Under the pieces are notes generated by a model that was given only the letters and a program-made list of their open reading frames with translations, had not been told where the DNA came from and did not search any database. Position numbers and translations under genes: made by a program. A stretch of DNA of 64,000 bases from an uncultured SAR86 cluster bacterium (GTDB lineage: Bacteria > Pseudomonadota > Gammaproteobacteria > Magnimaribacterales > D2472): positions 49,579 through 113,578 of the forward strand of contig CACDUZ010000003.1 in assembly GCA_902556105.1 (NCBI GenBank). Reading direction: 5' to 3'. Shown here one piece after another: positions 24,219-62,713 of this stretch (its first letter is position 1; every line of letters begins with the position of its first letter).

Positions 24219-26957
24219 ATGTATAAGTTTTCAAAAATAGCATTTAATCTATCTTTATCCTTTTCTTTAATTTTTACTGCTTTTATAACTGCGCAAGAAG
24301 TAGAAGAGGTTGTTGTGACAGCAACAAAACAAGAGAAATCTGTTCAAGATATTCCTGTATCAATCGAAGCGTTCACTTCTGAAGATATAGATAAGAATAT
24401 GATTGATGATTTCAGTGATTTAGCTGAAGTTGTTCCAGGTCTAATAATTGATAAAGCTATCGGTTCAGGCGCATCTTATTCCATGAGGGGTGTTGGTTCT
24501 TATGGTGTTGGTGCTGCAGTTGTAGGATCATTAGTAGTTTCGATGGACGGCCATGAATACGGTTCATCATCCATAGCGGATACCGCTTTTCATGATCTTG
24601 AGAGAATCGAAGTTTTAAAAGGACCTCAAGGAACTTTATCTGGAAGAAATGCTGTTCAAGGTTTAGTTAATATGGTTACTAAGAGACCAACATCTGAATT
24701 CGAAGGCTCTGTTGATATATCAATAGGTAACTTTAATTCTCAAAGAACAAGCATGATTTTAAATATACCCGTTTCGGACAGACTAGGTATGAGATTGGCT
24801 ACAACAATATTTGATAGAGATGGTGTTGTTAAAAATATCCATACTGGAAATGATATTGATGGCAGAAGTGCTTATGGAGCAAGATTATCAATCGATTTTG
24901 ATATAAGTGACAAAACAACAATGGAATTTACTTATGATTATCAGCACGCTGATGATGATAGGCAAAATATTGGGCATAATGTTTGTACAAAAGACCCATT
25001 ATTTGGTTGTTCACCTTTTGAAAGAGGAACTTTTGGTCAACCAGCTCATGTTAATGGTAGTACTGCAGGATTCTTTAACTTTGCAGCTGCATTAGCTCCT
25101 GCACCAACTCTAGATTCTTATGCTGGAGTAGTGCCAACTGCTAATATCGAAGAAGTAAATCTTAATAGAGATCCTATCCTTAAGCAGAAATATGAATTCG
25201 CTCAAATGAAGTTTGATCATGAAATTAGTGATAGTCATAGACTTGAGGTTAAAGGTACATATTCAGTAAGAGATTACCAGCATATGGCTGACAATGATTA
25301 TGCTGTTGCTACATCACCATTCCCAGGACTCTTCCCAGCTGGTCATCCTGCATCATTTATCCCAATGCAATGGGATGGTTGTTATGGAGGTGTTCATAAT
25401 ACTTTCTGTGAAACTAATACAGCAGACAGAACATATGAGTTTGCATTTGCTGAAACAGAAACCTGGCAGGGTGAAGTAACATTAATCTCTGATCTTGATG
25501 GACCTTTAAACTATCAAATTGGTTATTATTACTATGACTCAACAACAAAAAATATTTATCAGGTTCAAACAGCTGCTTGGAACTTGATTCGTGATGCCAG
25601 TGTTCATCCTTATAACAATACATTATTTGGTGGAGCTCTAACTGGATCTGGATCAACTGACTTTCATGTTGCTTGGGCCCTAACCGGCTTCAATGCTGCA
25701 TTACTTCCACTTGTATTAACTGGATATACAACTCCATTACCAATTCAGGGTTTTATAAATGAAGATCATGTAAGGATAAAGTCTAAAGCTATATTAGGTG
25801 AGTTGTACTATGAACTATCTGATAAAACAATGCTTACACTTGGTCTTAGATATAACGATGATGTTGTAAAGGATAGTGTTGCTTCATGTTTAACTTTTGC
25901 AAGTTGCCCTAATTATCCTGCATCTCAAAAAGTAACTTCCGAATATGGATTTTTCCCAACTCAAGTTACTGAATCTGATGATGCTACTGGTTATAAATTT
26001 GCACTGAAGCATGATATAGATGATAACAAAATGGTTTATACAAGTTACACAACTGCTGTAAAAGCTGGAGGTAACAACCCAAATTCAACTGGTACTCCTG
26101 ATCCATATGATCAAGAGGAAACAGCCGTTTTTGAAATAGGCGCAAAGGGTATATTCCTAGATGGAGCCATGTTGCTGAATGCAACTTACTTCCAAAATAC
26201 AACTGATGGTATGTTAATTTCCTCAATTGTTAATGCTGGATCAAGAAACGTAAATACTGATGCTGAAATAAATGGACTTGAAGGTAATATGCTACTTTTC
26301 TTAAATGAAACAACAAGTATAGACGTTACTTTCTTAAAAGCTGATACAGAAATTACTAGTTTGAGCTTAATTAATCCAATTAATATTAATAATGCTTCAG
26401 CTAGAACACTTCTTCCTGCTGCTTTAGGTGGAGGATTAATGACGCCGCTTGGAGCTGGTGGGGTTTTAAGTGTTGGTAATACCGATGCAGGTTTAGTTTA
26501 TAAATTTGCGGGATTTATGTGTCTTGCTCCATTTAACCCATTTGATGCTACTGGAGCAACAGCTTGTACAGGAGACAACTTAGGAGTTCCTGTTGATGTT
26601 TCAGGCAATAAATTACCTCAATCACCAGAACTTTCATATAGTATCGGTCTAAATAAAGACTTTGTTGGTGACAGTGGGACAACAACAGCTCGAATTGCAT
26701 ACAGATATATGGGTGAGAGAGAAGGCACTGTCTATAATCAGCCCTGGTTAAAAATGCCAGAGCATAAGTTTTTTGATGCAACCGTTACGTATCAACCAAA
26801 TGGTGCAGATTGGTTTGTTAGGCTTGAAGCTAAAAATTTAGCAGACGATCGATATATTGGTTCATGGTATCTTGCAAGTGGTCTACAAGGTGGAAATAAG
26901 TTTGCAACAATCACAGAACCTAGAACATTTGGAGTTTCTTTCGGTACCTCCTTTTAA
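24219..26957 (+). CDS. TonB-dependent receptor (TBDR-1)
   Basis: Signal peptide, TonB-box/plug start QEVEEVVVTATK, plug motifs (IEVLKGPQGTLSGRN), and a C-terminal beta-barrel ending ...FGTSF. Confidence 0.9.
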   Translation: MYKFSKIAFNLSLSFSLIFTAFITAQEVEEVVVTATKQEKSVQDIPVSIEAFTSEDIDKNMIDDFSDLAEVVPGLIIDKAIGSGASYSMRGVGSYGVGAAVVGSLVVSMDGHEYGSSSIADTAFHDLERIEVLKGPQGTLSGRNAVQGLVNMVTKRPTSEFEGSVDISIGNFNSQRTSMILNIPVSDRLGMRLATTIFDRDGVVKNIHTGNDIDGRSAYGARLSIDFDISDKTTMEFTYDYQHADDDRQNIGHNVCTKDPLFGCSPFERGTFGQPAHVNGSTAGFFNFAAALAPAPTLDSYAGVVPTANIEEVNLNRDPILKQKYEFAQMKFDHEISDSHRLEVKGTYSVRDYQHMADNDYAVATSPFPGLFPAGHPASFIPMQWDGCYGGVHNTFCETNTADRTYEFAFAETETWQGEVTLISDLDGPLNYQIGYYYYDSTTKNIYQVQTAAWNLIRDASVHPYNNTLFGGALTGSGSTDFHVAWALTGFNAALLPLVLTGYTTPLPIQGFINEDHVRIKSKAILGELYYELSDKTMLTLGLRYNDDVVKDSVASCLTFASCPNYPASQKVTSEYGFFPTQVTESDDATGYKFALKHDIDDNKMVYTSYTTAVKAGGNNPNSTGTPDPYDQEETAVFEIGAKGIFLDGAMLLNATYFQNTTDGMLISSIVNAGSRNVNTDAEINGLEGNMLLFLNETTSIDVTFLKADTEITSLSLINPININNASARTLLPAALGGGLMTPLGAGGVLSVGNTDAGLVYKFAGFMCLAPFNPFDATGATACTGDNLGVPVDVSGNKLPQSPELSYSIGLNKDFVGDSGTTTARIAYRYMGEREGTVYNQPWLKMPEHKFFDATVTYQPNGADWFVRLEAKNLADDRYIGSWYLASGLQGGNKFATITEPRTFGVSFGTSF

Positions 26958-26974
26958 GAACCGAAAATAAGAAA

Positions 26975-27003
26975 GGACTATATTTTAAATATAGTCCTTT
27001 TTT
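26975..27003 (+). terminator. rho-independent terminator after TBDR-1
   Basis: GGACTATAT / ATATAGTCC stem with a 5-nt loop, followed by TTTTTT. Confidence 0.65.
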
Positions 27004-27041
27004 GTCTATATTAAATCGCTATATAAATAGTTAATATTTTT

Positions 27042-27050
27042 TGTATATAA
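27042..27050 (+). promoter_or_regulatory. T-run + TGTATATAA motif (extended -10-like) upstream of TBDR-2
   Basis: Shared motif; see the entry at 24136. Confidence 0.3.
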
Positions 27051-27115
27051 TTTCTATAAGTGATATAGTTTTCGAACATATTATGTTCATTAAGTCTATT
27101 TAAAGGGGGTACTAT

Positions 27116-29923
27116 ATGAACAATTACTTAAAACTTACATTTAGTTTTTTCACATTAATTGCAATAACCTTTTCAGCGAATACTATTTCTCAAGAAGTTG
27201 AAGAAGTGGTAGTTACTGCTACAAAGAAAGAGGAGTCTACTCAAGACATTGCGGTTTCTATTACTGCTATCACTGCAGATCAACTTGCAGCCGATCAGAT
27301 TTACGATCTTCAAGATCTAGCAGAAATTGTTCCTGGTTTTGGCGTAGCTAAGGGAATCGGTTCTGGTTCAGGTTTTGTTATGAGAGGCATAGGTTCCTAT
27401 GGTGTAGGTGCTGCTGTTGTTAGCTCAATAGTAACAAGCATAAATGGCCATAGTGTTAATCCTAGTATCATGAATGATATGGGTTTTATGGATCTTGAGC
27501 GTATTGAGGTATTGAATGGACCCCAGGGAACTCTTTTTGGAAGAAATTCTGTAGCTGGTGTTATTAATCTAATTACTGCTAGACCAACTGGTGAATTTGA
27601 AGGATATGTAGACTATGAGTCTGGAAATTATGATAAAGAAACTGTTAAAGGTGCAGTTAACATGCCTATTTCCGACACTGTGCGTGCAAGACTAGCTTTT
27701 ATGACAAATACTAGAGACGGAATGGTAGAAAATACTACTAACGGGAATAAAATGGATGATCGAAATGATCAAGCTGTTAGACTTTCTCTTGACTGGGACA
27801 TAAATGATGTTACTGAATTAAAATTCACATATTCCGGACAAAAGAGTAATGATAATAGACCTCAAGAGGAAATTTCTTACTGTCAACAAGATCCATTCTT
27901 TGGTTGTTCACCATGGGTAAGAGGAACTCCTAATACTGCAGCAGACAGCAGAGGCATAGGTGCTGGTTTATTCTCATTTATTGCAGCACTTTATCCTGGA
28001 ACTATACAAAACGATTATCGTTTCTCACCAACTACTGCAGAGCTTAACAAATTAGCAATAGACAGAGAGCCAACCCATGTTCAGGATATTGAATTTTCAA
28101 ATTTAGAATTAGTAAGAGAGTTGAGTGATAACCTTACAATGACTGCAAAATATTCATACGAAACAAGAAGGTTTCAACAAATGAATGATAATGATGGAAG
28201 TACTTCTCTTGCACCATTTATTGGTGCTGGAGTATTATTAGGTCTCCCGCCTGTAGAATCAGAACAGTGTTTTGGTACTCCAACTTTTGGATTCTGTGAA
28301 TATGTTACAACTGATCGAACGTATGATTTTTCTGACGTAAAGTATGAATCACAACAGGCTGAAATTAACATAATTTCTGATTTTGATGGACCTTTTAATT
28401 ATACAGCAGGTTTCTATATGTATGATTCCAGAAATGATAATGAATATAGAGTTCAAACTCCTGGTACTCAATACATTGGTGATTTTAGTTCACATCCTTA
28501 TTATCCAACAGTAACTGGACTTCTCGGCATTGACTTTGGTGCTAAAGGTGGCGTTCCATTCTATCAAGGCTTATTAGGTGTTGTTGCACTTGCACAACCT
28601 GCTATAACAGCTCAGACAATGTTAGCTATGGGGCTTCCAATATCAGCTACTCAATTAGCACAGCTTCAGGCTTTTGGAGCCGGTGTTGCTGCTTTACAAG
28701 CATTGCCAGATGTTACTGTTCCTATGGATATTAGAGGTACTTTAAGTGATCAGCACGTAAGAGTTAAATCTCAAGCTATATATGGAGAAGCTTACTTTGA
28801 TTTAAATGATACAACCAAACTTACACTTGGATTGCGTTTTGATGACTTAACTAATGCTTCCACTACATATAACGGTGGTATTCTTTCAAGCGGTTGGATT
28901 GCTGCTGGCGGATTTAACTATACAAATAGGATGGATGTTCCAGGTTTAGTTGATTATTTAGTTTTAAATGAAACAGCTACAAATGGAAAAATAGCAATTC
29001 AAAAATATCTTCAAGAGGACGTGATGGTATATGCCAGTTACGCAACAGCTACTAAGGGAGCTGGTGTAAATGCTGGTGATAATCCTGTCCCTTATGACAA
29101 AGAAGATACTTCAGTGTTAGATTTTGGTTTAAAAGCTAGATTGCTTGATGGTGCAATGCTTTTGAACATGAATATATATAGAAATGACAGTGAAGGTATG
29201 TTGCTTGCAACTATAAGAGATACACAATCATTTAATAATAATGTAGATGCAGAAATTACTGGTTTTGAAGGACAACTTAATGTCTTTTTAACAGAAACAA
29301 CACAACTAGAATTTTCATGGTTAGCTGTAGATGCAGAAATTACTGATGCACCAGCTACGATTAATTATCTAAACCCTTTTGACGCTAATAGCGTTGCCCA
29401 ATATTTAGGTCCAGTAGATCCAAATGGGACAGGATTCCAAACAGGTGCAGTATTCGATAATGGCATGATGGGCTTTAAATCTGCAGGATTTAACTGTAGT
29501 GTTCCTCAGTTTGCTCCAGCTGCTAATGTTCCTTGCCCTGGTTCACTAGGAGTTCCAGTAAGTGTTGCTGGTAATCCTTTACCTGGTGTTGCTGATCTTG
29601 AATACAGTCTTTCAGTTACACAGTTATTCCCAAGTGCAAATGGAGTAACTTCATGGAGACTATCTTACAGATATAGAGATAAAACTAATGGCGATCCATT
29701 TGGCTATGCAAGGTTTGATGTTCCTGAACAAAAATACTGGGACTCACTCGTAAGATATACTCCAAATGATGGAGATTGGTATGTTGGCGCTTATGCTAAA
29801 AACTTGGCTGATGATCAAACTCTTAATAGTTTAAGATCAGGAAGTAATATTCAAGGTGGCCAATTATATGGTACCTTCGCTGACCCAAGAACTATTGGTA
29901 TTCAGTTTGGCACTTCTTTTTAA
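27116..29923 (+). CDS. TonB-dependent receptor (TBDR-2)
   Basis: Same architecture as TBDR-1 and collinear with TBDR-3 over its whole length. Ends ...FGTSF. Confidence 0.9.
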   Translation: MNNYLKLTFSFFTLIAITFSANTISQEVEEVVVTATKKEESTQDIAVSITAITADQLAADQIYDLQDLAEIVPGFGVAKGIGSGSGFVMRGIGSYGVGAAVVSSIVTSINGHSVNPSIMNDMGFMDLERIEVLNGPQGTLFGRNSVAGVINLITARPTGEFEGYVDYESGNYDKETVKGAVNMPISDTVRARLAFMTNTRDGMVENTTNGNKMDDRNDQAVRLSLDWDINDVTELKFTYSGQKSNDNRPQEEISYCQQDPFFGCSPWVRGTPNTAADSRGIGAGLFSFIAALYPGTIQNDYRFSPTTAELNKLAIDREPTHVQDIEFSNLELVRELSDNLTMTAKYSYETRRFQQMNDNDGSTSLAPFIGAGVLLGLPPVESEQCFGTPTFGFCEYVTTDRTYDFSDVKYESQQAEINIISDFDGPFNYTAGFYMYDSRNDNEYRVQTPGTQYIGDFSSHPYYPTVTGLLGIDFGAKGGVPFYQGLLGVVALAQPAITAQTMLAMGLPISATQLAQLQAFGAGVAALQALPDVTVPMDIRGTLSDQHVRVKSQAIYGEAYFDLNDTTKLTLGLRFDDLTNASTTYNGGILSSGWIAAGGFNYTNRMDVPGLVDYLVLNETATNGKIAIQKYLQEDVMVYASYATATKGAGVNAGDNPVPYDKEDTSVLDFGLKARLLDGAMLLNMNIYRNDSEGMLLATIRDTQSFNNNVDAEITGFEGQLNVFLTETTQLEFSWLAVDAEITDAPATINYLNPFDANSVAQYLGPVDPNGTGFQTGAVFDNGMMGFKSAGFNCSVPQFAPAANVPCPGSLGVPVSVAGNPLPGVADLEYSLSVTQLFPSANGVTSWRLSYRYRDKTNGDPFGYARFDVPEQKYWDSLVRYTPNDGDWYVGAYAKNLADDQTLNSLRSGSNIQGGQLYGTFADPRTIGIQFGTSF

Positions 29924-29944
29924 ATTTTAAATAAATTTAATTTT

Positions 29945-29974
29945 AAAGGCTGGGTTTATCCCAGCCTTTTTTTT
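29945..29974 (+). terminator. rho-independent terminator after TBDR-2
   Basis: GGCTGGG-TTTAT-CCCAGCC followed by T8. Confidence 0.7.
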
Positions 29975-30003
29975 GGATAAATACTTAAAATAGTTACATT
30001 TTT

Positions 30004-30014
30004 TATGTATATAA
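30004..30014 (+). promoter_or_regulatory. T-run + TATGTATATAA motif (extended -10-like) upstream of TBDR-3
   Basis: Shared motif; see the entry at 24136. Confidence 0.3.
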
Positions 30015-30091
30015 AAAACGTATAACAGTTTTCTACTTAGACACTATTTCCGCATAGAATATTTAAATATTAAACATATGGGGGATATTAA

Positions 30092-32905
30092 ATGTTTATA
30101 GTTAACCTAAGAAATAGTTTTTTTGCTTTACTACTCACATTCACCTTTTCTTATACCGCCGTTGCGCAAGAAATAGAAGAGGTTGTTGTTACTGCAACTA
30201 AAAAAGAAGAATCCACTCAAGACATTGCAGTTTCTATAACTGCCATAACTGCAGACTTGCTTGCTGCAGAACAAATATATGATCTTTCAGATTTAGCTGA
30301 AGTTGTTCCAGGTTTTGAAACTTCCAAAGGCGTGGGCTCTGGATCAGGTTTTGTTATGAGAGGTATTGGTTCCTATGGCGTAGGTGCTGCTGTAGTAAGC
30401 TCAATAGTTACAAGCATTAACGGACATAGTGTTAACACAAGTGTGATGACTGATTTAGGTTTTATTGACCTTGAAAGAATAGAAATTTTAAATGGTCCAC
30501 AAGGAACTCTTTTTGGAAGAAATTCTGTTCAAGGGGTTATTAATTTAATTACCAAAAGACCAACCGAAGAGCTTGGTGGATACGTGGATGTTGAAGTTGG
30601 GTCATTTGATAGACAATTTGTGAAAGGTGCAATTAATGTTCCTTTTAGTGACTCTTTAAGAACAAGACTAGCATTTGCAACAAATACAAGAGATGGAATG
30701 GTTGAAAATGGTTATACGGGAAATGCAATGGATGATAGAAATGATCAATCCATCAGACTTTCTGTAGATTGGGATATTGACGATACTACTGAATTAAAAT
30801 TTACATACTCAGGACAAAAAAGTGATGATAATAGACCTCAAGAAGAAGCATCATATTGTCAGCCAGATCAATTCTTTGGATGTTCACCATACGAACGAGG
30901 TCCATTAGGTGGCTCACCCGATAGTAGGGGTAGTGCATTTGGTCTTTTTGGATTTATTGGACTTATTTATCCAGGAACAGTAAATAATGATTTTGGAACT
31001 GCGCTAAGACCAGACTCATTTAAGACTTTATATTTCGATAGAGAACCAACTCATCTTCAAGAAATCGAGGTTTCTAATTTAGAGCTCGTTAAAGAACTTG
31101 ATAATAATTTAACTCTTGTTGCAAAGTATTCTTACGAAACAAGACTATTTCAGCAGATGAATGACAATGATGGAGTTGTAAATAACCAACCTATGATTGG
31201 TACATTAGCAGGACCACCTTTTAGCTTACCTCCTATTGTTGCTGATGTATGTTTTGGAACAACTAATTTTGGTTTTTGTGAAACCGTAGATACTAACAGG
31301 GTATATGACTTTTCTGATGTAGCTACCAATTCAGGTCAGGGTGAGATAAACATAGTATCTGATTATGATGGTCCATTTAATTTTACAGTTGGTTATTATA
31401 TTTTTGATGAAAGAAATGATAATGAATATAGGGTTCAATCAGTTGGTACTCAGCTTATTGGAGACTTTGGAATTCATCCATATCTTCCGGTAATTAACGG
31501 TGCCACTAATAGTGATTTTAGCAATAAGGGCGGTGTAATTTTTTATCAAACTCTCTTAGCTGCGTTACCGCTTGGACCTGCAGCTTTACAGGCTCAAGGA
31601 TTATTAGCTGCTGGTTTAACACCATCAGCTGCTCAATTGCAGGCACTTCAACAATTTGGAGGTCTCGTAGCACTTTTAAATTCACTTCCAGATGCGACCG
31701 TTCCAATGGATATGAGAGGCACACTAAGTGATCAGCACGTTAGAACTAAATCTCAAGCTCTTTATGGTGAAGCTTACTTTGATTTAAATGATACAACCAA
31801 ACTTACACTTGGTTTAAGGTATGACGATCTTTCAACAGCTGCCTCAACTTATAATGGTGGTCTCCTTTCAACAGCATGGTTACTTGCTGGAGGTCCTGCC
31901 TTTGAAAACAGAAGAGATGTCCCAGGGTTAGTTGATTACAGAGTAATCGAAGATACAGCAACAAATGGAAAAATTGCGATTCAAAAGTATTTGCAAGATG
32001 ACTTAATGGTCTACGCTAGCTATTCAACTGCCACAAAAGGTGGAGGTGTTAACGCTGGAAATAATCCTACTCCATATGAAAAAGAAGAGACATCGGTCAT
32101 AGATTTTGGTCTAAAAGCTAAATTCTTAGATGGAGCCATGCTTTTAAATATGAATGTATTTAAGAATGAAAATAATGGCATGTTACTAGATACAATTAGA
32201 GACACTCAGTCATTTAATATTAACGTAGATGCTGAAATCACAGGTTTTGAAGGTTTAATGAAAGTATTTTTATCAGAAACTACTCAATTAGATCTCACAT
32301 GGATAATGGTTGATGCTGAAATAACATCTGATACCAGCGCAATTAATTATTTAAATCCTGCAAATTCTACTCTTGTTATGCCTTTAGGTGCAGTTGATCC
32401 AAATGGAACTGGTTTCCTAACTGGTGCTGTCTTCAGCAATGGAGAAACATGGATTAAGTCTGGTGGATTTAATTGTAGTACTGCTGTAGGTTTTAATCCT
32501 GCTGCAAATGTCTTTTGTCCAGCAAGTGTTGGTAATCCAGTTGATTTGCAAGGCCTTCCTTTGCCAAGAGTTGCAGATTTATCATATAGCATTGCATTTA
32601 CTCAACTCTTCCCAACAGACAATGGAGTTACATCAGCTAGATTAGCTTACAGATTTAGAGACGAAACTAATGGTGATCCATATAATATGAGTAGGTTTGC
32701 AATTCCTGAGAATAAAACTTTTGACTTTTTACTAAGATATACACCAAATGATGGAGATTGGTATATTGGTGCATATGCTAAAAACTTAGCAGATGATCAA
32801 TATATGAATTCAATCAGATCTGGTAGTAATGCTCAAGGTGGTCAATTATATGCATCCTTTACAGATCCAAGAAGTTGGGGAATTCAGTTTGGTTCTTCAT
32901 TCTAA
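30092..32905 (+). CDS. TonB-dependent receptor (TBDR-3)
   Basis: Close paralog of TBDR-2, with long identical peptide runs such as EEVVVTATKKEESTQDIAVSITAITAD. Ends ...FGSSF. Confidence 0.9.
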   Translation: MFIVNLRNSFFALLLTFTFSYTAVAQEIEEVVVTATKKEESTQDIAVSITAITADLLAAEQIYDLSDLAEVVPGFETSKGVGSGSGFVMRGIGSYGVGAAVVSSIVTSINGHSVNTSVMTDLGFIDLERIEILNGPQGTLFGRNSVQGVINLITKRPTEELGGYVDVEVGSFDRQFVKGAINVPFSDSLRTRLAFATNTRDGMVENGYTGNAMDDRNDQSIRLSVDWDIDDTTELKFTYSGQKSDDNRPQEEASYCQPDQFFGCSPYERGPLGGSPDSRGSAFGLFGFIGLIYPGTVNNDFGTALRPDSFKTLYFDREPTHLQEIEVSNLELVKELDNNLTLVAKYSYETRLFQQMNDNDGVVNNQPMIGTLAGPPFSLPPIVADVCFGTTNFGFCETVDTNRVYDFSDVATNSGQGEINIVSDYDGPFNFTVGYYIFDERNDNEYRVQSVGTQLIGDFGIHPYLPVINGATNSDFSNKGGVIFYQTLLAALPLGPAALQAQGLLAAGLTPSAAQLQALQQFGGLVALLNSLPDATVPMDMRGTLSDQHVRTKSQALYGEAYFDLNDTTKLTLGLRYDDLSTAASTYNGGLLSTAWLLAGGPAFENRRDVPGLVDYRVIEDTATNGKIAIQKYLQDDLMVYASYSTATKGGGVNAGNNPTPYEKEETSVIDFGLKAKFLDGAMLLNMNVFKNENNGMLLDTIRDTQSFNINVDAEITGFEGLMKVFLSETTQLDLTWIMVDAEITSDTSAINYLNPANSTLVMPLGAVDPNGTGFLTGAVFSNGETWIKSGGFNCSTAVGFNPAANVFCPASVGNPVDLQGLPLPRVADLSYSIAFTQLFPTDNGVTSARLAYRFRDETNGDPYNMSRFAIPENKTFDFLLRYTPNDGDWYIGAYAKNLADDQYMNSIRSGSNAQGGQLYASFTDPRSWGIQFGSSF

Positions 32906-43314: not shown

Positions 43315-45513
43315 ATGCAGCTAAAACATATAAAACTATCAGGTTTTAAAAGCTTCGTTGATCCAACGAAGATATCATTCCCAACAAATATGGTTGGTGT
43401 TGTAGGTCCCAATGGCTGCGGTAAATCTAATGTAATCGATGCAGTAAGATGGGTACTGGGAGAATTATCAGCTAAGAATCTTAGAGGCGAGTCGATGGTT
43501 GATGTAATTTTTAATGGCTCTGAAAAAAGAAAGGCATCTGGTCAGTGCAGCATAGAACTTTTATTTGATAATTCAACTGCAAAAATTGGTGGTGAATACG
43601 CCTCCTTTAATGAAGTATCTATAAAAAGAGTTATGACAAGAGACGCTCAATCAGATTACTTTATTAATAATACAAAATGTCGTAGAAAAGATGTTCAAGA
43701 TATATTTCTTGGAACAGGACTTGGACCAAGTTCATATGCAATTATCGAACAAGGAATGGTAAGTAAACTTGTAAGTGCAAAACCTGATGAACTTAGAACT
43801 CATTTAGAAGAAGCCGCTGGAGTTTCTAAATATAGAGAAAGAAGAAGAGAGACTGAATCTAGAATAAAAAGAACAAAAGAAAACCTATCAAGAGTTAAAG
43901 ACATAAGAGATGAAATAGCAAGATTAATAAAGCGTCTTGAAAATCAGGCGAAAGCTGCAGATAAATATAATTTGCTTAAGCAAAAAAAATCAAATCTTGA
44001 ACTAGATAAAGCGATAATATTTTCAATTGAAGCAAAAAATAATAGAGATGATCTTCAAAAAAAATTAGATGCTTTAAACAGAGATCTTAAAATTAAAAAT
44101 GCAGAATCTGAAACAATTCAGTCTCAAATAGACCAGTTTAGAACTCAAAATGAATCTGTATTAAATGAATATGAAGCTGCTCAAAAGAATTTTTATTCAA
44201 TAGGTGCTGAAATTGCAAAGAGAGAAGCTAATTTACAAAATATTAATAGAAGTGAATCAGAGACTAAAGAAAGTCTTCAAAAGGCTATCCAAAATCTTGA
44301 AAAGGCAAAAGAAACAGAGAAAAATTTCGATGAATTAAGTCCAAGCGAAAAAGCTATGCATATCTTAGATAGCATTATTAGTACGATTGAAAAATTTCAA
44401 ATAAAGAACGATAGCATTGGGGAAAAAGCAATTGAACTCAAAGGTTTGCTGACAGACATATTAAATATTGCCACCGCTCAATCAAAATCACTTACAGATG
44501 AATATCTTTCAAGGCAAAGTGATCTCGAGGGCCAGATATCTGAGGCTGAAAAACTTAAACTATCAATAGAAAATGAAATGAAGGAATTTGTTGGCAAAAG
44601 TTCAGAGGCTGAATCAATTTTAATATCTTTAAGACAAAAACAATCGAAGTTTAATGACGAGTTAAGAGAGCTTGAAAATAATAAGTCTATATCTGACTTA
44701 GACTCTAGATCAATTTCAGAAAATATTACAAATATACGAATTGAACTTAAAACGTATGAAATTAACTTAGATAATTCAAATAAAAAAATTAAGGAAGCTG
44801 GTATAGATATTGATTCAATTGAATTCTCTGAATATAAAGGAATCACCTTAGATGATTTAGATAATAAGTTAACTGATATAGAAACAAAAATAATAAGATT
44901 GGGAGCAATAAATCTTGCAGCACCTGAGGAAATAGAAGAAGAATCTAAAAGGAAAGAAGATTTAGATAATCAATATAATGATCTTACCGAAGCATTAGAT
45001 AAGCTTACAGGAGCAATTAAAAAAATAGACCAAGAGACCAAAACAATTTTTAAAGATAGTTTTGATTCTGTAAACGTAAAGTTGAAAGAAATGTTTCCTA
45101 AGCTTTTTGGAGGTGGGGTTGCTGAATTAACTTTAACAGATGATGATGCATTAAATGCAGGTGTTATTTTAATGGCTAGGCCACCAGGTAAAAAGAACTC
45201 ATCCATATCTCAATTATCTGGCGGTGAAAAAGCTTTAACTGCTTTAGCTTTGGTATTTGCAATATTTGATCTAAACCCTGCACCATTTTGTCTTCTTGAT
45301 GAGGTTGACGCTCCTCTGGATGATCTTAATACATTAAGATTTATAGATATGGTTGAAGAGATGTCTAAATCAGTTCAATTTATCTTCATTACCCATAATA
45401 AAGTGTCAATGGAAAGAAGCGATCATCTAATGGGTGTTACCATGCAGGAAGCAGGTGTTTCAAGAATGGTTTCTGTAGATGTGAATCAAGCTCTTGAGCT
45501 TGCAGAATCATAG
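43315..45513 (+). CDS. smc: SMC-family chromosome segregation ATPase, unusually short (732 aa)
   Basis: Walker A GPNGCGKSN, Q-loop IIEQG, AAGVSKYRERRRE, C-terminal signature LSGGEKALTALALVFA and Walker B LLDEVDAPLDD. The middle is heptad-like coiled coil only. Confidence 0.8.
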   Translation: MQLKHIKLSGFKSFVDPTKISFPTNMVGVVGPNGCGKSNVIDAVRWVLGELSAKNLRGESMVDVIFNGSEKRKASGQCSIELLFDNSTAKIGGEYASFNEVSIKRVMTRDAQSDYFINNTKCRRKDVQDIFLGTGLGPSSYAIIEQGMVSKLVSAKPDELRTHLEEAAGVSKYRERRRETESRIKRTKENLSRVKDIRDEIARLIKRLENQAKAADKYNLLKQKKSNLELDKAIIFSIEAKNNRDDLQKKLDALNRDLKIKNAESETIQSQIDQFRTQNESVLNEYEAAQKNFYSIGAEIAKREANLQNINRSESETKESLQKAIQNLEKAKETEKNFDELSPSEKAMHILDSIISTIEKFQIKNDSIGEKAIELKGLLTDILNIATAQSKSLTDEYLSRQSDLEGQISEAEKLKLSIENEMKEFVGKSSEAESILISLRQKQSKFNDELRELENNKSISDLDSRSISENITNIRIELKTYEINLDNSNKKIKEAGIDIDSIEFSEYKGITLDDLDNKLTDIETKIIRLGAINLAAPEEIEEESKRKEDLDNQYNDLTEALDKLTGAIKKIDQETKTIFKDSFDSVNVKLKEMFPKLFGGGVAELTLTDDDALNAGVILMARPPGKKNSSISQLSGGEKALTALALVFAIFDLNPAPFCLLDEVDAPLDDLNTLRFIDMVEEMSKSVQFIFITHNKVSMERSDHLMGVTMQEAGVSRMVSVDVNQALELAES

Positions 45514-46116
45514 ATGAGCACAAATTCAGAAATTTATCTTATTGGATTTGCTATAGTAATATTTCTCAGCATTGTCTTTTTATTTATAAGAAAAATATCG
45601 AATGCTGGAAAATTAAAAGTAAAGATTGAATCCTTGCCTGAATCATTTGATGAAGAAATGAGCAATAAAAATCAACAATCATTTGAATTTGAGGCAAATG
45701 AAGATAAAGATCAAGAGCTAGTAATACTTAACTTGATTTCAGTTGATAGATCTTTATTTGATATAGATCAACTTTTTGGATTTCTTTCAAATTATGGAGG
45801 AAAAATTACAAATAAGTTTTTTTTATTTTGTGACGAAAATAGTAAAGAAAAATTCAGAGTAATAAATGCGCTTAATCCAGGAACTTTCGATGAGGACACA
45901 AAGACTTTTGCTATTGCAATTGTTTCAGACATTAATAGTGTTGAAGACCCGCTAAATACTGTAAAAAAAATGATTGAGTTTTCAGTTAGTTTTGCAGAAA
46001 AGTTTCATGCAACCTTGTGCGATCAAGAAAGAACACCAATCACAAAACAAATGATTCTTCACATCGAAACAAAAGCACAAGACGTAGCAAGAATTAAGCA
46101 ACTTAAAAATAGTTAA
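45514..46116 (+). CDS. zipA: cell division protein ZipA (minimal form)
   Basis: N-terminal TM anchor. The C-terminal domain aligns by eye with the E. coli ZipA FtsZ-binding domain (NPGTFDEDTKTF vs KPGTFDPEMKDF; LCDQERTPITKQ vs LDDQRRMMTPQK). Position between smc and the ligase supports the call. Confidence 0.72.
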   Translation: MSTNSEIYLIGFAIVIFLSIVFLFIRKISNAGKLKVKIESLPESFDEEMSNKNQQSFEFEANEDKDQELVILNLISVDRSLFDIDQLFGFLSNYGGKITNKFFLFCDENSKEKFRVINALNPGTFDEDTKTFAIAIVSDINSVEDPLNTVKKMIEFSVSFAEKFHATLCDQERTPITKQMILHIETKAQDVARIKQLKNS

Positions 46117-46139: not shown

Positions 46140-47429
46140 ATGTCAAAACCTTGGAAAATAATTCAAGAATTAGAAACTGATAATAGTCGTCTTTTTAAAG
46201 AAAGTGTTGTCGAAAAAAACCTAAATGATAAAACTTTTCAAGAAGGTTTGGCTATGTGCCTAGACCCGCTAGTTACTTTTGGTGTCAAACAAGTGCCTGA
46301 ATCTGATGCTGATGGTGAAGGGTTAAAGTGGGATCATTTTAGAGCGGCAGCAAAATTATTAATTGAAAGAGAAAAGACTGGCCACGCTGCACGAGATTTA
46401 ATTATTGATTTAGTTAGTTCTTCTAAAAAAGATCAATGGAATGACTGGTATAGAAGAATATTAATTAAAGATCTTCGTTGTGGCGTGAGTGAAAAGACTG
46501 TTAACAATGTAGCAAAAAAAATGAATTTGAAGTACCGTGTTCCAGTTTTTTCTTGCATGTTAGCTCACGATGGAGCAAAGCATCCTAAAAAAATTAAAGG
46601 CGACTGTTTAGTTGAGTACAAGTATGATGGAGTGAGAGTAATAGCAATTGTCATGAAAGGGAAAGCTACTTTGTACAGTAGAAATGGCAAAATATTTAAT
46701 AATTTTCCACATATTGAAAATGCTTTAAGCAAACCAGAATACAATAATATAGTATTTGATGGCGAGGTGATGAGTGATGACTTTCAAGCATTAATGAAAC
46801 AGGTATATAGAAAGTCTGGTGCTCAAACAGACGATGCATATCTTGCCTTGTTCGACATGCTCCCATTAAATGAATTCAATAAAGGCAAAAGCAATTTAAA
46901 TTCTATTGAAAGAAAAAATGAACTCAATAAGATAGCCAAGAATTTTGATGTTAATGTAATTAAATTAGTAGATTATGAAATTGTGAATTTTGATAATGAC
47001 ATAGGACAAGCTAAGTTTGCTGCTATGAATAAAGAAGCTCTTGAAATGGGTTTTGAAGGGTTAATGATAAAGCCAAATGAAAATTATTATGAATCTAAAA
47101 GAAGTCATGCTTGGCTAAAAATTAAACCATTTATAGAAGTTACATTGAAGATAGTAGACATTCAAGAAGGTACAGGTAAACATTCTGGTAAATTAGGTGC
47201 TTTTCAAGTTGAAGGATCTGACGATGGAAAATTCTTTTCTTTAAGTGTTGGAAGTGGCTTAACAGATGAAGATAGAGAAAAGTTTTGGGAATCAAGAGAC
47301 CAGCTTTTAGGGAGGTTGATAGAGGTAAGAGCTGATGCTATTACGCAAAGTATTGAAGGAGAGCATTACAGCCTTAGATTTCCAAGATTTAAAAATTTTA
47401 GGGGCTTTAAAAAAGATGAAAAAATATAA
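46140..47429 (+). CDS. ATP-dependent DNA ligase (T7-like catalytic core with N-terminal extension)
   Basis: Adenylation motif I VEYKYDGVR, motif III VFDGEVM, motif IV FEGLMIKP, motif V WLKIKP, and an OB-fold tail. No NAD-ligase motifs (no KxDG inside a BRCT/zinc-finger architecture). Confidence 0.88.
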   Translation: MSKPWKIIQELETDNSRLFKESVVEKNLNDKTFQEGLAMCLDPLVTFGVKQVPESDADGEGLKWDHFRAAAKLLIEREKTGHAARDLIIDLVSSSKKDQWNDWYRRILIKDLRCGVSEKTVNNVAKKMNLKYRVPVFSCMLAHDGAKHPKKIKGDCLVEYKYDGVRVIAIVMKGKATLYSRNGKIFNNFPHIENALSKPEYNNIVFDGEVMSDDFQALMKQVYRKSGAQTDDAYLALFDMLPLNEFNKGKSNLNSIERKNELNKIAKNFDVNVIKLVDYEIVNFDNDIGQAKFAAMNKEALEMGFEGLMIKPNENYYESKRSHAWLKIKPFIEVTLKIVDIQEGTGKHSGKLGAFQVEGSDDGKFFSLSVGSGLTDEDREKFWESRDQLLGRLIEVRADAITQSIEGEHYSLRFPRFKNFRGFKKDEKI

Positions 47430-48027
47430 ATTTATTTATTATTTATTATTTATATCAGTTTTTGTAATCCAATCTTGCACAACGAGGCCGCCAGAAAATC
47501 CAGATAATATTTGTCTCATATTCAAAGAAAAAAGAAGCTGGTATAAGGCTGTCATGAGAAGTGAAAAAAGATGGAAAGTGCCTCCATATGTTTTAATGTC
47601 ATTTGTATATCAAGAATCAAGCTTCCAGTCTGATGCAAGGCCGGAAAGAGAAAAGCTTCTTGGTTTTATTCCATGGTTTAGACCATCAACAGCTGTAGGT
47701 TATTCACAAGCTTTAGTGAATACTTGGGAAGATTATAAGGATGAAACTGGTAATACAAGAGCGAGTAGAAAAGATTTTGCAGACTCGGCAGATTTTATTG
47801 GATGGTATGCCAGTAAAGGCTATTATCAAGGCTTTGAAAGAACAGATGCTAGGTCGTTATATCTTGCTTATCATGAAGGATATGGTGGATTTAAGAAAAA
47901 AACTTATAGAAAAAAACAATGGCTTATTAAAGTTTCAGATAGGGTGCAGGCAAGATCTACAAAATATCAAAAACAATATTGGGGATGTGCGAAAGAATTG
48001 AAGAAAAAGAGATTTATATTTTTTTAA
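47416..48027 (+). CDS. lipoprotein with lytic-transglycosylase (SLT)-like domain
   Basis: The ATG at 47416 gives lipoprotein signal MKKYKFIYYLLFISVFVIQSC. VYQESSF (catalytic Glu-Ser) and AVGYSQAL resemble SLT domains. The tracked start at 47335 lies inside the ligase gene. Confidence 0.55.
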   Translation: MKKYKFIYYLLFISVFVIQSCTTRPPENPDNICLIFKEKRSWYKAVMRSEKRWKVPPYVLMSFVYQESSFQSDARPEREKLLGFIPWFRPSTAVGYSQALVNTWEDYKDETGNTRASRKDFADSADFIGWYASKGYYQGFERTDARSLYLAYHEGYGGFKKKTYRKKQWLIKVSDRVQARSTKYQKQYWGCAKELKKKRFIFF

Positions 48028-55575: not shown

Positions 55576-56211
55576 ATGAATAGTAAGCTAAAGAAAGAAG
55601 ATAAATTACCGTCATACCTTCGTAGATCATCAAAAGGCGGACTTCTTGTAGGATTTATATACGTAATAGCTTTTATGAGTATTTTATTTTTAGCTATATG
55701 GCAAACATTTGAATCGGAAAAAAATAAAAGCGATATGCAACTTGTTGATGATCGACTCTCTTTAATAGAAGAACAAATCAATATTGTTGATGAAACCAAT
55801 AATGATTCGATGACAGATATTACATCTTCAATACAATTCCTTGATAAAGAAGTTAGAAAATTATGGGATTTAAGCAATAAAAGGAATAAAGTTAATATTC
55901 AGAACCTTAGTAATAAAACTGAAGAAATTCAGGAGCTATTAAATACGATCAAGATTGACATAAAAGAAAATCAAACAAATCTTTCATCTTTACAAGATGA
56001 TATTGCCATTAATATATCTAAAATTGATGAATTGGGTTTATCTTCAGATGATCTTGAGGAACTTAGACAAAAACTAAATAATATCAATACACAATTAATT
56101 CTGCTTGATGACTCTGTACAAGCCTTGAATAATTATAAAAATCAATTAAATCAGGCGATTTTAGAAATCCAGACGCAAGTCTCTTCTATTCAAAGCCAAA
56201 CTGATGAATAA
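55576..56211 (+). CDS. membrane-anchored coiled-coil protein (hypothetical)
   Basis: One TM helix, then heptad-rich Asn/Gln/Leu/Ile sequence. Confidence 0.45.
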   Translation: MNSKLKKEDKLPSYLRRSSKGGLLVGFIYVIAFMSILFLAIWQTFESEKNKSDMQLVDDRLSLIEEQINIVDETNNDSMTDITSSIQFLDKEVRKLWDLSNKRNKVNIQNLSNKTEEIQELLNTIKIDIKENQTNLSSLQDDIAINISKIDELGLSSDDLEELRQKLNNINTQLILLDDSVQALNNYKNQLNQAILEIQTQVSSIQSQTDE

Positions 56212-57039: not shown

Positions 57040-57924
57040 CTAAGAGCGAGCTTTAGAAAAGAGCTTGTATCTCATAAAGTACAACATCATTTTCCAGTCA
57101 GGAATTTTATAGGGATCGGGTTTATCTAAATTAGACCCCAGTTTGGATAAACTGGGGGCATTTTTATTAGACTCATTTTCTAAAAAAACTTCTTTTTGAA
57201 TCGAAGATAATAAGTTCAAAAAGCTATTTTTTACTAAGTGATCATTTGAAGAAGATTCTGTATTTGAATAACGAATCATAATAATTTCTCTACCAGGTTC
57301 AGTGAATTTAGGTAGTCGATGCCAAATAGATCTATGAAAGATTACAACTGTACCAATTCCACCATGAGTTTTAATAATATCTTTATCTGAAAATGGAGAT
57401 TTACTTAAATCAATGTATGTTGCATCATCAATCTTGTTTTTAGTTATAGAACTATTATCGATAGTACATAAATGAGATCTTTTCACAAATTCAGTAATAC
57501 CAAATTTTTTATCAGGCTTAGTTAAATATATAAATATACTCAATCCGTTTCCCAAGTCACTATGCAGTGGAATTCCATTCTCTGAAAAAATTTTTTTTTG
57601 AATTGAAATCGTTCCTAAAGAGATGTCTGAATTGAAATATTTTTTAAGAAACTTAATTAAATCTGTATCCAACACTAACTTAAGAGCTTTTGAGCTGCAA
57701 AGACCGACGTGGTCAATCCACTGATTATTTCCAATGATAAATGAAGATATTCTATTATTAAAACTTATATTTTTATACCAAGATAATGTATCCTTTCTTA
57801 TATCATTAATAATATCACTAGGAATTATACTGGGTAAAATAATTACTCCATCTTCCTTTAATTGTTTGAGATGATTTTCAGATAAAGATAAAAATGAAGG
57901 CATGGTAATTATTATACCTTGCAA
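57040..57924 (-). CDS. Fe(II)/2-oxoglutarate dioxygenase, phytanoyl-CoA dioxygenase (PhyH)-like
   Basis: PhyH-like N-terminus (LSENHLKQLKEDGVIILPSII), HxD (PLHSDL) and a distal His (VVIFHRSIWH). Confidence 0.55.
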   Translation of the reverse strand: MQGIIITMPSFLSLSENHLKQLKEDGVIILPSIIPSDIINDIRKDTLSWYKNISFNNRISSFIIGNNQWIDHVGLCSSKALKLVLDTDLIKFLKKYFNSDISLGTISIQKKIFSENGIPLHSDLGNGLSIFIYLTKPDKKFGITEFVKRSHLCTIDNSSITKNKIDDATYIDLSKSPFSDKDIIKTHGGIGTVVIFHRSIWHRLPKFTEPGREIIMIRYSNTESSSNDHLVKNSFLNLLSSIQKEVFLENESNKNAPSLSKLGSNLDKPDPYKIPDWKMMLYFMRYKLFSKARS

Positions 57925-60334: not shown

Positions 60335-62698
60335 CTAAAAGCTATAAGAATATTTAAGTGTTACTGTTCTCGGCGGTATCCATTGCATCCAGTTTCTTGG
60401 TCTCCAGGATGTATCATCAACAGCATATATATATGCCTCTGTTCTTTCATCAGTAAGATTATCAATGGATAATTGAAGTTTTGAATATTCACTCAAGTCT
60501 AATCCAAGATTGAAATTTAATTTTGTGTAATCTGGAGAGCTTGAATTTGGATTTTCAGCAAATGTATTAAAACTATCTCCATAATAATTTACATCAAGTC
60601 TTGCATAGGATGGATATGACATAATTGTTGTGTCATACACTAATCCAAGATTCCACTGAGTTTCAACTGTATTAGGTAGTCTATCGCCAGCTGAAGCGCC
60701 AAGAGATGAAATATCTATTGATGTCTCAGCAGTCATGGAACTTCCAGCAAAATCAAGAGAAATTTCATCATTAACTGTATAAGTAAAGTCGACTTCCCAG
60801 CCTGAAGTCTCAGCTTTACCACCATTAAAATTATATCTCCATCCACAACCCGGTGTTACCTGAATGATAATTCCATCCCAATCAACATCAAAATATGTAA
60901 CATTGGCACTATAATTTTCGCCTCTTGCTTTCACTCCAAATTCTGTAGTCTCAGCTTCGTCTGAATTAAATCTTCTTGAGAAGTTTGCTTGTGCTGCTTC
61001 GTCACTACTACAAAAAGGTGGAAGTGGAGCCTGATTTCCACCAGGTCTATACCCGGCTGCCTGTGTTGCATATAAGGTTAAGTCATCATTAACCATGTAA
61101 TTAACAGCATATTTCATTCTTGTATCAGACTCTGACCCTGAAAGTTCAGCACAATCAGTTCCAGCAGGATCATTACCATCACATCCATTGCTGTCCATAA
61201 AGAAGATACCATACTGATAAGATTTTGATGCATCTTCAATTTCATAATCTCTGATACCAAATGTTAGTGTTAACTTGTCATTAACGTTGTAATCAAATTG
61301 ACCATAAAAAGATGTTTCTTCTTGCTCGTTGTACTCAGTATAGGAACCATAATAGAAGTATGGATAGCCTAAATGATCATCACAGAAAGGAGGACAATAA
61401 ATTGTTGCATCATAATCGCCAGGACTTAAACCAGCTGCATAAAGCATCACATACTCTAACCAATCTTGATCCACCGCATATTGAGTTTGTGATACTGAAT
61501 TAGGTTCTTCATTAAACTTATAATTATAATAACCTACAGTCCACTCAAATTTGCCGGGTTTTGAGATTAATCTTAGCTCAGTTGTTTCTTGGTAAGATTC
61601 ATCTCCATCTACGATTAGTGGTGCTGGAACATAATCATCCATATCAATTCTAGCCCAATCAGTTACTGAATCATCAGTTACTGTTCTGTCAGAAATAATT
61701 AAGTTAGCATCAAAAGCACCAAAGTCATATTTAATATTCGCAATTAAAGTTTCTCTAGTAATGTCCTCAGATTCATCCGCTGCTAAAGCATGTGCAAATT
61801 TTGGATCATAATTTGTAAGAACTCCATTAACACCCTCGCTGACTGCATATGTTGATATTGCACTTAAACGTGAACATGTTGGATCTCCATCAAAATTATA
61901 AAACCAACTGGTTGCCTGAGGACAGCCCTCAACATAGACGTCTGCACTTCCAGGCTTACTTTGCCCAGGTTCCAAGATACCATATGCTTTATTATTAAAA
62001 TTTACGTATCGTAAACTACCAGTTAACTTTCCACCGTTGTTAAATCCTAGAGTAATCATTAATTGAGAGTCATCCTCTTCGCCAACAGTTTTGCCTGTTT
62101 GAATGTTTTTATAAATACCAGGAGAAACTAATTGTGAATAGACCGTCCTAAGTGCAAGATTGTCTGATAACGATAAGTTATACATCATTTCAATGCTAGT
62201 TTCTGGATCACTGGCTTTAACTTTATCACCGTAACCAATTCTTATTTTTCCATAAGATGCACTTGAATCAGGCTTATTAGTTATGTATCTGATGGTTCCA
62301 CCAATTGCATTTGAACCGTAGAGTGTACCTTGAGGTCCTCTCAATACTTCAATACGCTCAACATCGAATAAACCCATCAATGCTCCACTTACCTCATCAA
62401 TATAAGTTGAAGAAGTTCCAGAGCCACGTTGTGAAGTTGATGTGTTTAAACCCCTAAAGGTGTAATAATTTGAGCCGCCCGGTGTTGAAACACCTGCCAA
62501 TGATCGCAAATAGTCTTCAGGGTTTGTTATGCCTCTTTCTTCTAGTGCTGTTTCAGTAATAACAGAAATATTCATTGGTATTTCTTGAAGTGTTTCAGCC
62601 TTCTTGTTAGCAGTAACAATAACTTCTTCAACTTCTTGTGAAATTAAAGATAATGGCATTAAAAACAATGCGACATACAATAAATTTAAATTTTTCAT
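60335..62698 (-). CDS. TonB-dependent receptor (TBDR-4)
   Basis: Signal peptide MKNLNLLYVALFLMPLSLISQ, TonB box EVEEVIVTANK, plug IEVLRGPQGTLYGSNA, and a barrel ending ...YSYSF. GAGGA sits 7 nt before the ATG at 62698. The tracked ATG at 62704 is only 1 nt from that Shine-Dalgarno. Confidence 0.88.
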   Translation of the reverse strand: MKNLNLLYVALFLMPLSLISQEVEEVIVTANKKAETLQEIPMNISVITETALEERGITNPEDYLRSLAGVSTPGGSNYYTFRGLNTSTSQRGSGTSSTYIDEVSGALMGLFDVERIEVLRGPQGTLYGSNAIGGTIRYITNKPDSSASYGKIRIGYGDKVKASDPETSIEMMYNLSLSDNLALRTVYSQLVSPGIYKNIQTGKTVGEEDDSQLMITLGFNNGGKLTGSLRYVNFNNKAYGILEPGQSKPGSADVYVEGCPQATSWFYNFDGDPTCSRLSAISTYAVSEGVNGVLTNYDPKFAHALAADESEDITRETLIANIKYDFGAFDANLIISDRTVTDDSVTDWARIDMDDYVPAPLIVDGDESYQETTELRLISKPGKFEWTVGYYNYKFNEEPNSVSQTQYAVDQDWLEYVMLYAAGLSPGDYDATIYCPPFCDDHLGYPYFYYGSYTEYNEQEETSFYGQFDYNVNDKLTLTFGIRDYEIEDASKSYQYGIFFMDSNGCDGNDPAGTDCAELSGSESDTRMKYAVNYMVNDDLTLYATQAAGYRPGGNQAPLPPFCSSDEAAQANFSRRFNSDEAETTEFGVKARGENYSANVTYFDVDWDGIIIQVTPGCGWRYNFNGGKAETSGWEVDFTYTVNDEISLDFAGSSMTAETSIDISSLGASAGDRLPNTVETQWNLGLVYDTTIMSYPSYARLDVNYYGDSFNTFAENPNSSSPDYTKLNFNLGLDLSEYSKLQLSIDNLTDERTEAYIYAVDDTSWRPRNWMQWIPPRTVTLKYSYSF

Positions 62699-62713
62699 AA
62701 TCATATCCTCTAT

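Follow-up and report, generated by a model that had tools for sequence, protein, structure and literature searches.

Models of SMC function assign to the hinge and to full-length arms specific roles in ring entrapment, segment capture and hinge-to-head DNA transfer. A locus of an uncultured SAR86 cluster bacterium raises the question of whether a bacterial Smc may dispense with both. The DNA under study is a stretch of 64,000 nucleotides (positions 49,579 to 113,578 of contig CACDUZ010000003.1, assembly GCA_902556105.1), referred to here as the window. The gene in question is its smc reading frame, 732 codons long and free of interruptions, whose product has no hinge and about half of the usual arm. 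As described below, this hingeless, half-arm Smc orthologue of SAR86 is real, under selection and widespread, and the main issue becomes how such a protein might work.

At the sequence level, the two ends of the 732-aa protein form the two halves of an SMC-type ATPase head. The N-terminal half carries the Walker A motif (GPNGCGKS, residues 31-38), R57 and the Q-loop residue Q146, and the C-terminal half carries the signature motif (LSGGEKAL, 634-641), Walker B (LLDEVD, 660-665) and H694. All these motifs can be read directly in the sequence and are invariant across homologues. In Pfam, SMC_N (PF02463) covers residues 3-716 (1.9e-59), and SMC_hinge (PF06470) has no match in the protein even at E<=1. 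The NCBIfam equivalog TIGR02168 (SMC_prok_B) reaches 800.5 bits (cut-off 567.35) and aligns in two stretches, the first of which pairs residues 2-342 with profile positions 1-343 of 1181. The best sequence matches in the PDB are the Bacillus subtilis Smc heads 5XG3 and 3ZGX; only Smc head constructs appear among these matches, and no hinge entries. The nearest homologues are full-length gammaproteobacterial SMCs, with 40-55% identity. Because the equivalog score exceeds its cut-off, the nearest homologues are gammaproteobacterial SMCs and the gene occupies an smc-zipA-ligase locus, the protein is the SAR86-lineage orthologue of bacterial Smc. It passes the sequence tests and fails two architectural ones, those of hinge and arm length, and it is therefore a variant of Smc and not a canonical member. 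A preliminary description, made from the sequence alone, had claimed an uninterrupted frame with intact SMC heads at both ends and no recognisable hinge. The frame and the complete set of ATPase motifs agree with this claim, and no profile, whether from Pfam, from NCBIfam or from the custom model described next, detects a hinge.

To define what is missing, a hidden Markov model (HMM) was built from 135 full-length homologues (1150-1190 aa) retrieved by an exhaustive search of representatives. Residues 1-349 of the SAR86 protein align with positions 1-350 of this profile and residues 385-731 with positions 816-1162. Approximately 465 positions (~351-815) are thus absent, which correspond to the hinge plus some 150 residues of each arm, and about 185 residues of each arm still align. 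The two most conserved arm prolines of the 135 full-length SMCs are found at profile positions 354 (80%) and 845 (83%) and mark a mid-arm discontinuity of the ‘elbow’ kind, a feature that has been reported for bacterial Smc (bioRxiv 10.1101/464701). In the 732-aa protein, the N-terminal match stops at about position 350, close to the first of these prolines, and P343 is invariant in all members of the hingeless clade. Since the match ends at a conserved proline and P343 never varies, the protein looks like an Smc that was truncated just above the elbow and sealed by a short loop.

The reality of this architecture is manifested in its recurrence. More than 100 protein clusters with 93-100% identity share the length of 732 aa (a few have 731 and one is truncated), and they come from hundreds of contigs deposited in NCBI, JGI, ENA and Tara, some of them named SAR86 cluster bacterium. 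All ten of the closest species-representative loci (L001-L010) carry a hingeless smc of either 727-732 or 995-996 aa. Six of these loci bear the title SAR86 cluster bacterium and the remaining four belong to metagenome-assembled genomes of Gammaproteobacteria, with several single-cell genomes among the ten; the SMCs encoded at the other 70 representative loci are full-length and come from Cellvibrionales, Pseudomonadales and groups like these. The ratio of non-synonymous to synonymous substitution rates (dN/dS, Nei-Gojobori) is 0.042 for the pair L004/L005 (dS 0.31) and 0.050 for L006/L008 (dS 0.67). Purifying selection is apparent in every region of smc, including the arm tip (dN/dS 0.07-0.13). 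Together with the orthologous position of the gene, this supports the earlier proposal that it is the functional SMC of a streamlined genome. The same survey of SMC length, along with the profile searches, produced neither a hinge nor signs of an assembly artefact nor membership of another short family, the three findings that would have spoken against that proposal.

The predicted structure fits this picture of a shortened Smc. AlphaFold2 (AF2) was run on a single chain with an alignment of 68 sequences and returned a mean confidence (pLDDT) of 80.7. Helices were predicted at residues 170-334, 343-360, 367-494, 512-529 and 536-598, the last one running into the head, with loops at 335-342 and 361-366 and joint-like breaks at 495-511 and 530-535. 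The N-terminal arm helix (170-334) is unbroken over 165 residues, or ~25 nm, and the arm as a whole is predicted to span ~165-185 residues vs ~340 in canonical Smc. Foldseek retrieved as best PDB matches structures of Smc head, coiled coil and joint (5XEI at the top, then 5XNS, 5H68 and 5XG3). Half-length coiled coils with a short non-heptad stretch as a possible turn had been anticipated in the preliminary description; the helix lengths bear out the former, and the two loops coincide with the latter. A comparison of the arm lengths with the published length modes of 163, 238 and 341 aa was dropped, as the definitions differ.

In place of the hinge, the model shows only a helix-loop-helix at the arm tip, whose first helix (helix A) comprises the 18 residues 343-360. 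Conserved hydrophobic residues line both tip helices (M348, I350/L351, I354/I355 and I358 in helix A; L375, L378/L379, I382/L383 and I385 in helix B), and the adjoining end of the arm is nearly free of them. Judging from these positions, the hydrophobic surface of the tip would exceed what a two-helix hairpin can bury. Moreover, the SPxEKA and QSK motifs of the tip are invariant across ~40% sequence divergence. Across SAR86 lineages, the invariant fraction reaches 0.75 in the N-terminal head, 0.65 in the C-terminal head and 0.47-0.54 in the neck, falls to 0.15-0.18 in the mid-arm and peaks locally at the tip. The tip is therefore put forward as a candidate dimerisation module that replaces the hinge.

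Further information on the arms is provided by the long SMCs of some SAR86 relatives. The 995/996-aa forms (P0122; L009:7001-9988; L010:7001-9991) are equivalent to the 732-aa form with two tandem duplications added, 120 aa in the N-terminal arm and 143 aa in the C-terminal arm, which together (263 aa) account for the full length difference. The duplication boundaries are identical in both species, and control background scores are far lower. In the AF2 model of the long form the arm is all-helical over ~280 residues and breaks at the duplicated proline and at the duplicated joint-like element, which lie opposite each other. These paired duplications are evidence, of an independent and evolutionary kind, that both strands of the arm and its overall length are under a joint constraint. 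The distal C-terminal arm copies of L009 and L010 are orthologous. In neighbour-joining (NJ) trees, the window group joins L009 in 184/200 bootstrap replicates, and L009 joins L010 in 14/200. On the basis of this tree and of the type of the neighbouring ligase (ATP-dependent vs LigA), the long form appears to be paraphyletic to the 732-aa group of the window. Such paraphyly would imply either that the window's group later lost the two duplications together or that alleles were exchanged by recombination. C-terminal pieces of the long form (P0327, P0328, P0330 and P0334, in the cluster of P0160) also occur, as ORFs with lengths of 391-525 aa on contigs that reach 37 kb, and could represent split or frameshifted smc genes or gene-calling artefacts.

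How, then, might a hingeless Smc work? In the reading favoured here, which is regarded as reasonably probable, the protein is a working condensin of the Smc-ScpAB type that dimerises via its hydrophobic tip, its arms and its heads. Its observed foundation is an orthologue that has no hinge and short arms and that is conserved and under selection; on top of this, the reading proposes that the tip dimerises, that ScpAB is the partner in SAR86 and that the protein can still load and translocate. An ancestral in-frame loss would have taken the hinge together with the outer half of each arm helix, up to a point near the elbow. The remainder would comprise an intact ABC-ATPase head, the neck, the joint and a ~25 nm antiparallel coiled coil closed by the conserved helix-loop-helix cap, and would have been retained as an ATP-driven chromosome organiser that works with a kleisin. 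Three contacts may substitute for the hinge: the unusually hydrophobic caps would pack against each other at their tips, probably forming a bundle of four helices; the arms would associate laterally; and the heads would engage in an ATP-dependent manner, bridged by ScpA. Tip-to-tip packing is favoured because the tip hydrophobics exceed the needs of a hairpin and because SPxEKA and QSK do not vary. Of the earlier claim that both arm length and dimerisation mode depart from the textbook condensin, the first part is established by the alignments and the second follows from the missing hinge, with the contacts just listed as the suggested mode.

Experiments on B. subtilis Smc help to assess this reading. 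This protein can be targeted to parS without its hinge and without two-thirds of its arm, whereas the head-proximal ~100 residues are needed (PMC4785775). By analogy, the parts kept in SAR86 correspond to those on which B. subtilis Smc depends to turn over ATP, to bind the kleisin and to be targeted via ParB/parS. With a flexible linker in place of the hinge, B. subtilis Smc shows no chromosomal association, and hinge dimerisation mutants likewise fail to associate with the chromosome (PMC4785775), and the Rad50 zinc hook can functionally replace the Smc hinge (PMC5344682). Since the linker deletion fails and the zinc-hook swap works, it is a dimeriser that is needed, and not the hinge fold itself. 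It has also been demonstrated that arm-arm contacts contribute to the dimerisation of hinge-less Smc (PMC5526789; PMC4785775). The co-lengthening of both arms in the 995/996-aa relatives counts in favour of a tip-dimerised condensin as well, as it indicates that arm length matters.

A condensin of this type would work with kleisin partners. The window was scanned with Pfam over 45 ORFs, leaving out five short ccm-operon ORFs, a pitrilysin-like ORF and antisense or overlapping ORFs, and none of the 45 encodes ScpA, ScpB, MukEF, Mks, a separate hinge or a second smc. In a second hingeless lineage (L206/L207), which is low-GC, marine and gammaproteobacterial, the gene order of L206 is queF followed by smc (905 aa)-zipA-scpA-scpB-rluB in one contiguous block (L206:6653-11993; smc is called there as 930 aa from an upstream start and is taken as 905 aa). 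Thus, a hingeless SMC co-occurs with kleisin and kite subunits in this second lineage. The scpA gene of L206 (10001-10674) appears with an internal deletion of ~45 aa and a frameshift that leave ORFs of 161 and 67 aa. A ‘split kleisin’ as a general feature of this lineage was considered and discarded, given that the split in L207 is a T-homopolymer frameshift and that the L206 deletion is found in one contig only. A scan of metagenomes with an AT-biased FEGPLDLLL pattern recovered proteobacterial-type ScpA loci, one of which led to L206/L207 and another of which is L116/L208. The operon trpS-scpA (257 aa)-scpB (173 aa)-mog-rluB (L208:7257-10781; also L116 and L209-L216), with 31-32% GC, is gammaproteobacterial, very abundant in marine metagenomes and present on contigs of up to 946 kb. 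It is a candidate for the ScpAB of SAR86, although neither cluster names nor tetranucleotide similarity assigned it to this group.

Several observations weigh against the tip-dimerised condensin. The invariant fraction at the tip (0.27) is only modestly above that of the flanking arm, and the single-chain AF2 model has low confidence there (pLDDT 56-67). The tip sequence differs in deeper hingeless branches (P0177, P0126 and P0136), which have the proline alone in common. ScpA and ScpB are absent from the window and are not tied to any SAR86 genome. In addition, the failure of the linker-joined hinge deletion to localise in B. subtilis suggests, by analogy, that activity without a hinge is no given.

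Part of this evidence could also be explained by an open, single-armed SMC, the strongest of the alternatives albeit one with a clearly smaller chance of being right. According to it, the tip would be a mere cap, and protomers would meet through their ATP-engaged heads, transient zipping of the arms and the kleisin, acting as a DNA clamp or kleisin ring at the level of the heads and not as a closed ring with a lumen between the arms. It would agree with the lack of a recognisable dimerisation domain, with the fact that no sequence relative of the tip was found in the PDB, with the low AF2 confidence at the tip and with its variation among hingeless lineages, as expected if it only closes a hairpin. 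Furthermore, arm-arm contacts and heads already dimerise the hinge-less B. subtilis Smc (PMC5526789; PMC4785775). It is harder to reconcile with the conserved hydrophobic doublets on both tip helices, more than a two-helix hairpin needs, with the invariance of SPxEKA and QSK, and with the loss of chromosomal association in B. subtilis when hinge dimerisation is mutated or the hinge is deleted (PMC4785775). That the SAR86 chromosome is indeed organised and segregated by an SMC-kleisin motor whose arms are unjoined at the top, with no closure equivalent to a hinge, is considered unlikely, slightly more so than the open arm itself. If this were true, the closed SMC lumen and the hinge-DNA contacts would be dispensable for SMC function in vivo, and arm length would be adjusted stepwise, through arm modules that are duplicated or lost in pairs, as in the 732-aa and 995-aa forms.

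It is quite improbable that the protein has changed its function, so that it would no longer compact or segregate the chromosome and would serve as a RecN- or Rad50-like tether of DNA ends or in repair, or that the gene is being lost from a ~1.5 Mb genome able to segregate without condensin. In favour of such a change, an architecture of head and short coiled coil that lacks a hinge is closer to RecN than to Smc; some long-form clusters are known only as the C-terminal ORFs mentioned above, a possible sign of fragmentation; and the swapped ligase next door reveals an evolutionarily plastic locus. Against these points stand the strong purifying selection across the whole gene, its constant position upstream of zipA in all relatives, an SMC equivalog score far above those of RecN and Rad50, the high conservation of the neck, which is involved in kleisin binding and parS targeting, and the encoding of a hingeless SMC along with ScpAB in a second lineage. 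Finally, an artefact or pseudogene, arising from an assembly collapse or merge or as a fragment of a normal 1170-aa smc, had nothing in its favour beyond the missing half of the expected length. It is for all practical purposes ruled out by the recurrence of the 732-aa product across clusters and databases, by the presence of the hingeless gene in the same context in ten species representatives of SAR86 type, including several single-cell genomes, and by a dN/dS of ~0.05.

Hinge loss is not restricted to the group of the window. Among the best 150 representatives, six are hingeless, with lengths of 732, 736, 810, 827, 906 and 995 aa. The genes for the 736-, 810- and 827-aa forms are likewise found upstream of zipA, and two of the three follow ccm genes. 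Together with the SAR86 core, these three forms make up one clade in 191/200 NJ bootstrap replicates. The 906/905-aa form (P0146, L206) joins this clade in only 15/200 replicates, and its deletion has different end-points (profile 425-711). In view of this grouping and of the different end-points, the loss in the 906/905-aa lineage is probably independent, with the caution that NJ on long branches is weak evidence. Hinge loss probably arose more than once in low-GC marine bacteria. Shortening of the arms is also seen in two gammaproteobacterial SMCs that keep the hinge (P0169, 990 aa; P0214, 1003 aa), each of whose arms is ~80 residues shorter; as short-arm variants found in nature, they have no relationship with the hingeless clade.

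With regard to its surroundings, smc is part of a conserved locus (Table 1). The order ccm operon, smc, zipA, ligase is found in the closest relatives wherever the contig reaches that far, and there is no terminator-like site within the smc operon. The preliminary description had placed the gene in an smc-zipA-lig context; the context is real, and the ligase is of the ATP-dependent kind (PF01068 and PF14743) and not the NAD-dependent LigA. An ATP-dependent ligase of 427-429 aa follows zipA in the window, L002, L003 and L009, and a NAD-dependent LigA of 676-725 aa occupies the same position in L006, L007, L008 and L010. According to this distribution, one type of replicative ligase has taken over the position of the other within the SAR86 clade.

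Table 1. Features of the smc locus of SAR86, in window coordinates.
Feature	Position	Strand	Basis
smc, hingeless short-armed SMC orthologue, 732 aa + stop	43315..45513	+	TIGR02168 800.5 bits; SMC_N without SMC_hinge
ATPase head, N-terminal half (aa 1-165): Walker A, R57, Q146	43315..43809	+	motifs in sequence; PDB 5XG3, 3ZGX
N-terminal arm helix (aa 166-342): conserved neck 166-230, variable arm, loop 335-342	43810..44340	+	AF2; profile 166-350
Arm tip (aa 343-392): P343, helix A 343-360, loop 361-366, start of helix B	44341..44490	+	AF2, pLDDT 56-67
C-terminal arm helix (aa 393-570), breaks 495-511 and 530-535 (GAINLAAPEE)	44491..45024	+	AF2; profile 816-1000; Foldseek 5XEI
ATPase head, C-terminal half (aa 571-732): signature, Walker B, D-loop, H694	45025..45510	+	motifs in sequence; PDB matches
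zipA, 200 aa; ATG abuts smc stop (TAGATG)	45514..46116	+	ZipA_C 4.7e-12; same order in L001-L010
ATP-dependent DNA ligase, 429 aa	46140..47429	+	PF01068 + PF14743

Other genes of the window can be mentioned briefly. An SLT_4 transglycosylase ORF, listed from its first ATG at 47335-48027, shares its first 95 nt with the 3' end of the ligase gene; its homologues in L003 and L009 start later, and the real start is probably downstream. Three consecutive genes for TonB-dependent receptors (912, 935 and 937 aa) occupy positions 24219-32905 (+), and a fourth one is found at 60335-62704 (-), a set typical of SAR86 gene content. Four ORFs have no Pfam match, two of them at E<=1e-5 (14390-16099, 569 aa; 20068-21921, 617 aa) and two at E<=0.001 (57040-57924, 294 aa; 55576-56211, 211 aa).

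The position of the SAR86 protein among known systems can now be defined. RecN shares with it an SMC-type head, a short coiled coil and the lack of a hinge, and dimerises via the apex of its coiled coil. The SAR86 arms are longer, nevertheless, and the gene sits at the smc locus. Assignment to RecN was rejected on the score of TIGR00634, 36.3 bits (cut-off 407.85). Rad50/SbcC also combine a head with a coiled coil, which is long in their case, and use a small non-hinge apex as dimeriser. Their models give 41-54 bits, with cut-offs at 700-1087, and the SAR86 protein has no CXXC zinc hook; its only cysteines are C35, C78, C122 and C659, none of them within residues 123-658. In MukB, MksB and JetC, which are gammaproteobacterial ATPases of the SMC class, the hinge is reduced. 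Membership of the MukB/MksB group was discarded, given that the protein has no Muk or Mks match in Pfam or NCBIfam and a Smc-type head, and that its neighbours are ccm, zipA and ligase genes with no mukEF-like genes among them.

The closest resemblance is to canonical Smc (TIGR02168; 5XG3, 3ZGX, 5XEI), with which the protein shares the head motifs, the neck, the joint and an antiparallel intramolecular coiled coil, as well as the smc-zipA locus of canonical gammaproteobacterial Smc. It differs from it in the arm, of ~165-185 residues (~25 nm) as opposed to ~340 (~47-50 nm), and in the helix-loop-helix cap that stands where the hinge would be. An oceanic cluster of ‘hinge-less’ SMCs was described in 2025 and assigned to Actinomycetes; it branches with actinobacterial SMCs, and its function was left open (PMC12153180). 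Both this cluster and the SAR86 protein have an SMC head and a coiled coil, no hinge and no CXXC hook, and are abundant in ocean metagenomes. The SAR86 protein is set apart by description, since both its homologues and its smc-zipA synteny place it in Gammaproteobacteria, and the report of the oceanic cluster mentions neither SAR86 nor Gammaproteobacteria (PMC12153180). A literature search for a hingeless SMC of SAR86 or other Gammaproteobacteria found no description. Hinge loss thus extends beyond the one reported oceanic, actinobacterial cluster, and one of the most abundant marine bacterial groups keeps a hingeless SMC orthologue under strong selection. The nearest counterparts made in the laboratory are the engineered B. 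subtilis variants Mini-Smc, Smc(Zh) and Smc(deltaH), in which the arms are shortened and/or the hinge is removed (PMC5344682; PMC4785775). The arm of the SAR86 protein exceeds the ~100 head-proximal residues that this series needs for parS targeting. The functional engineered variants retain a dimeriser, either hinge or zinc hook, and the linker-joined hinge deletion is non-functional. Unlike all of them, the SAR86 protein evolved under purifying selection and has a conserved tip of its own, and its gene offers both a minimal natural SMC for biochemistry and structure and a natural test of which parts of an SMC are dispensable.

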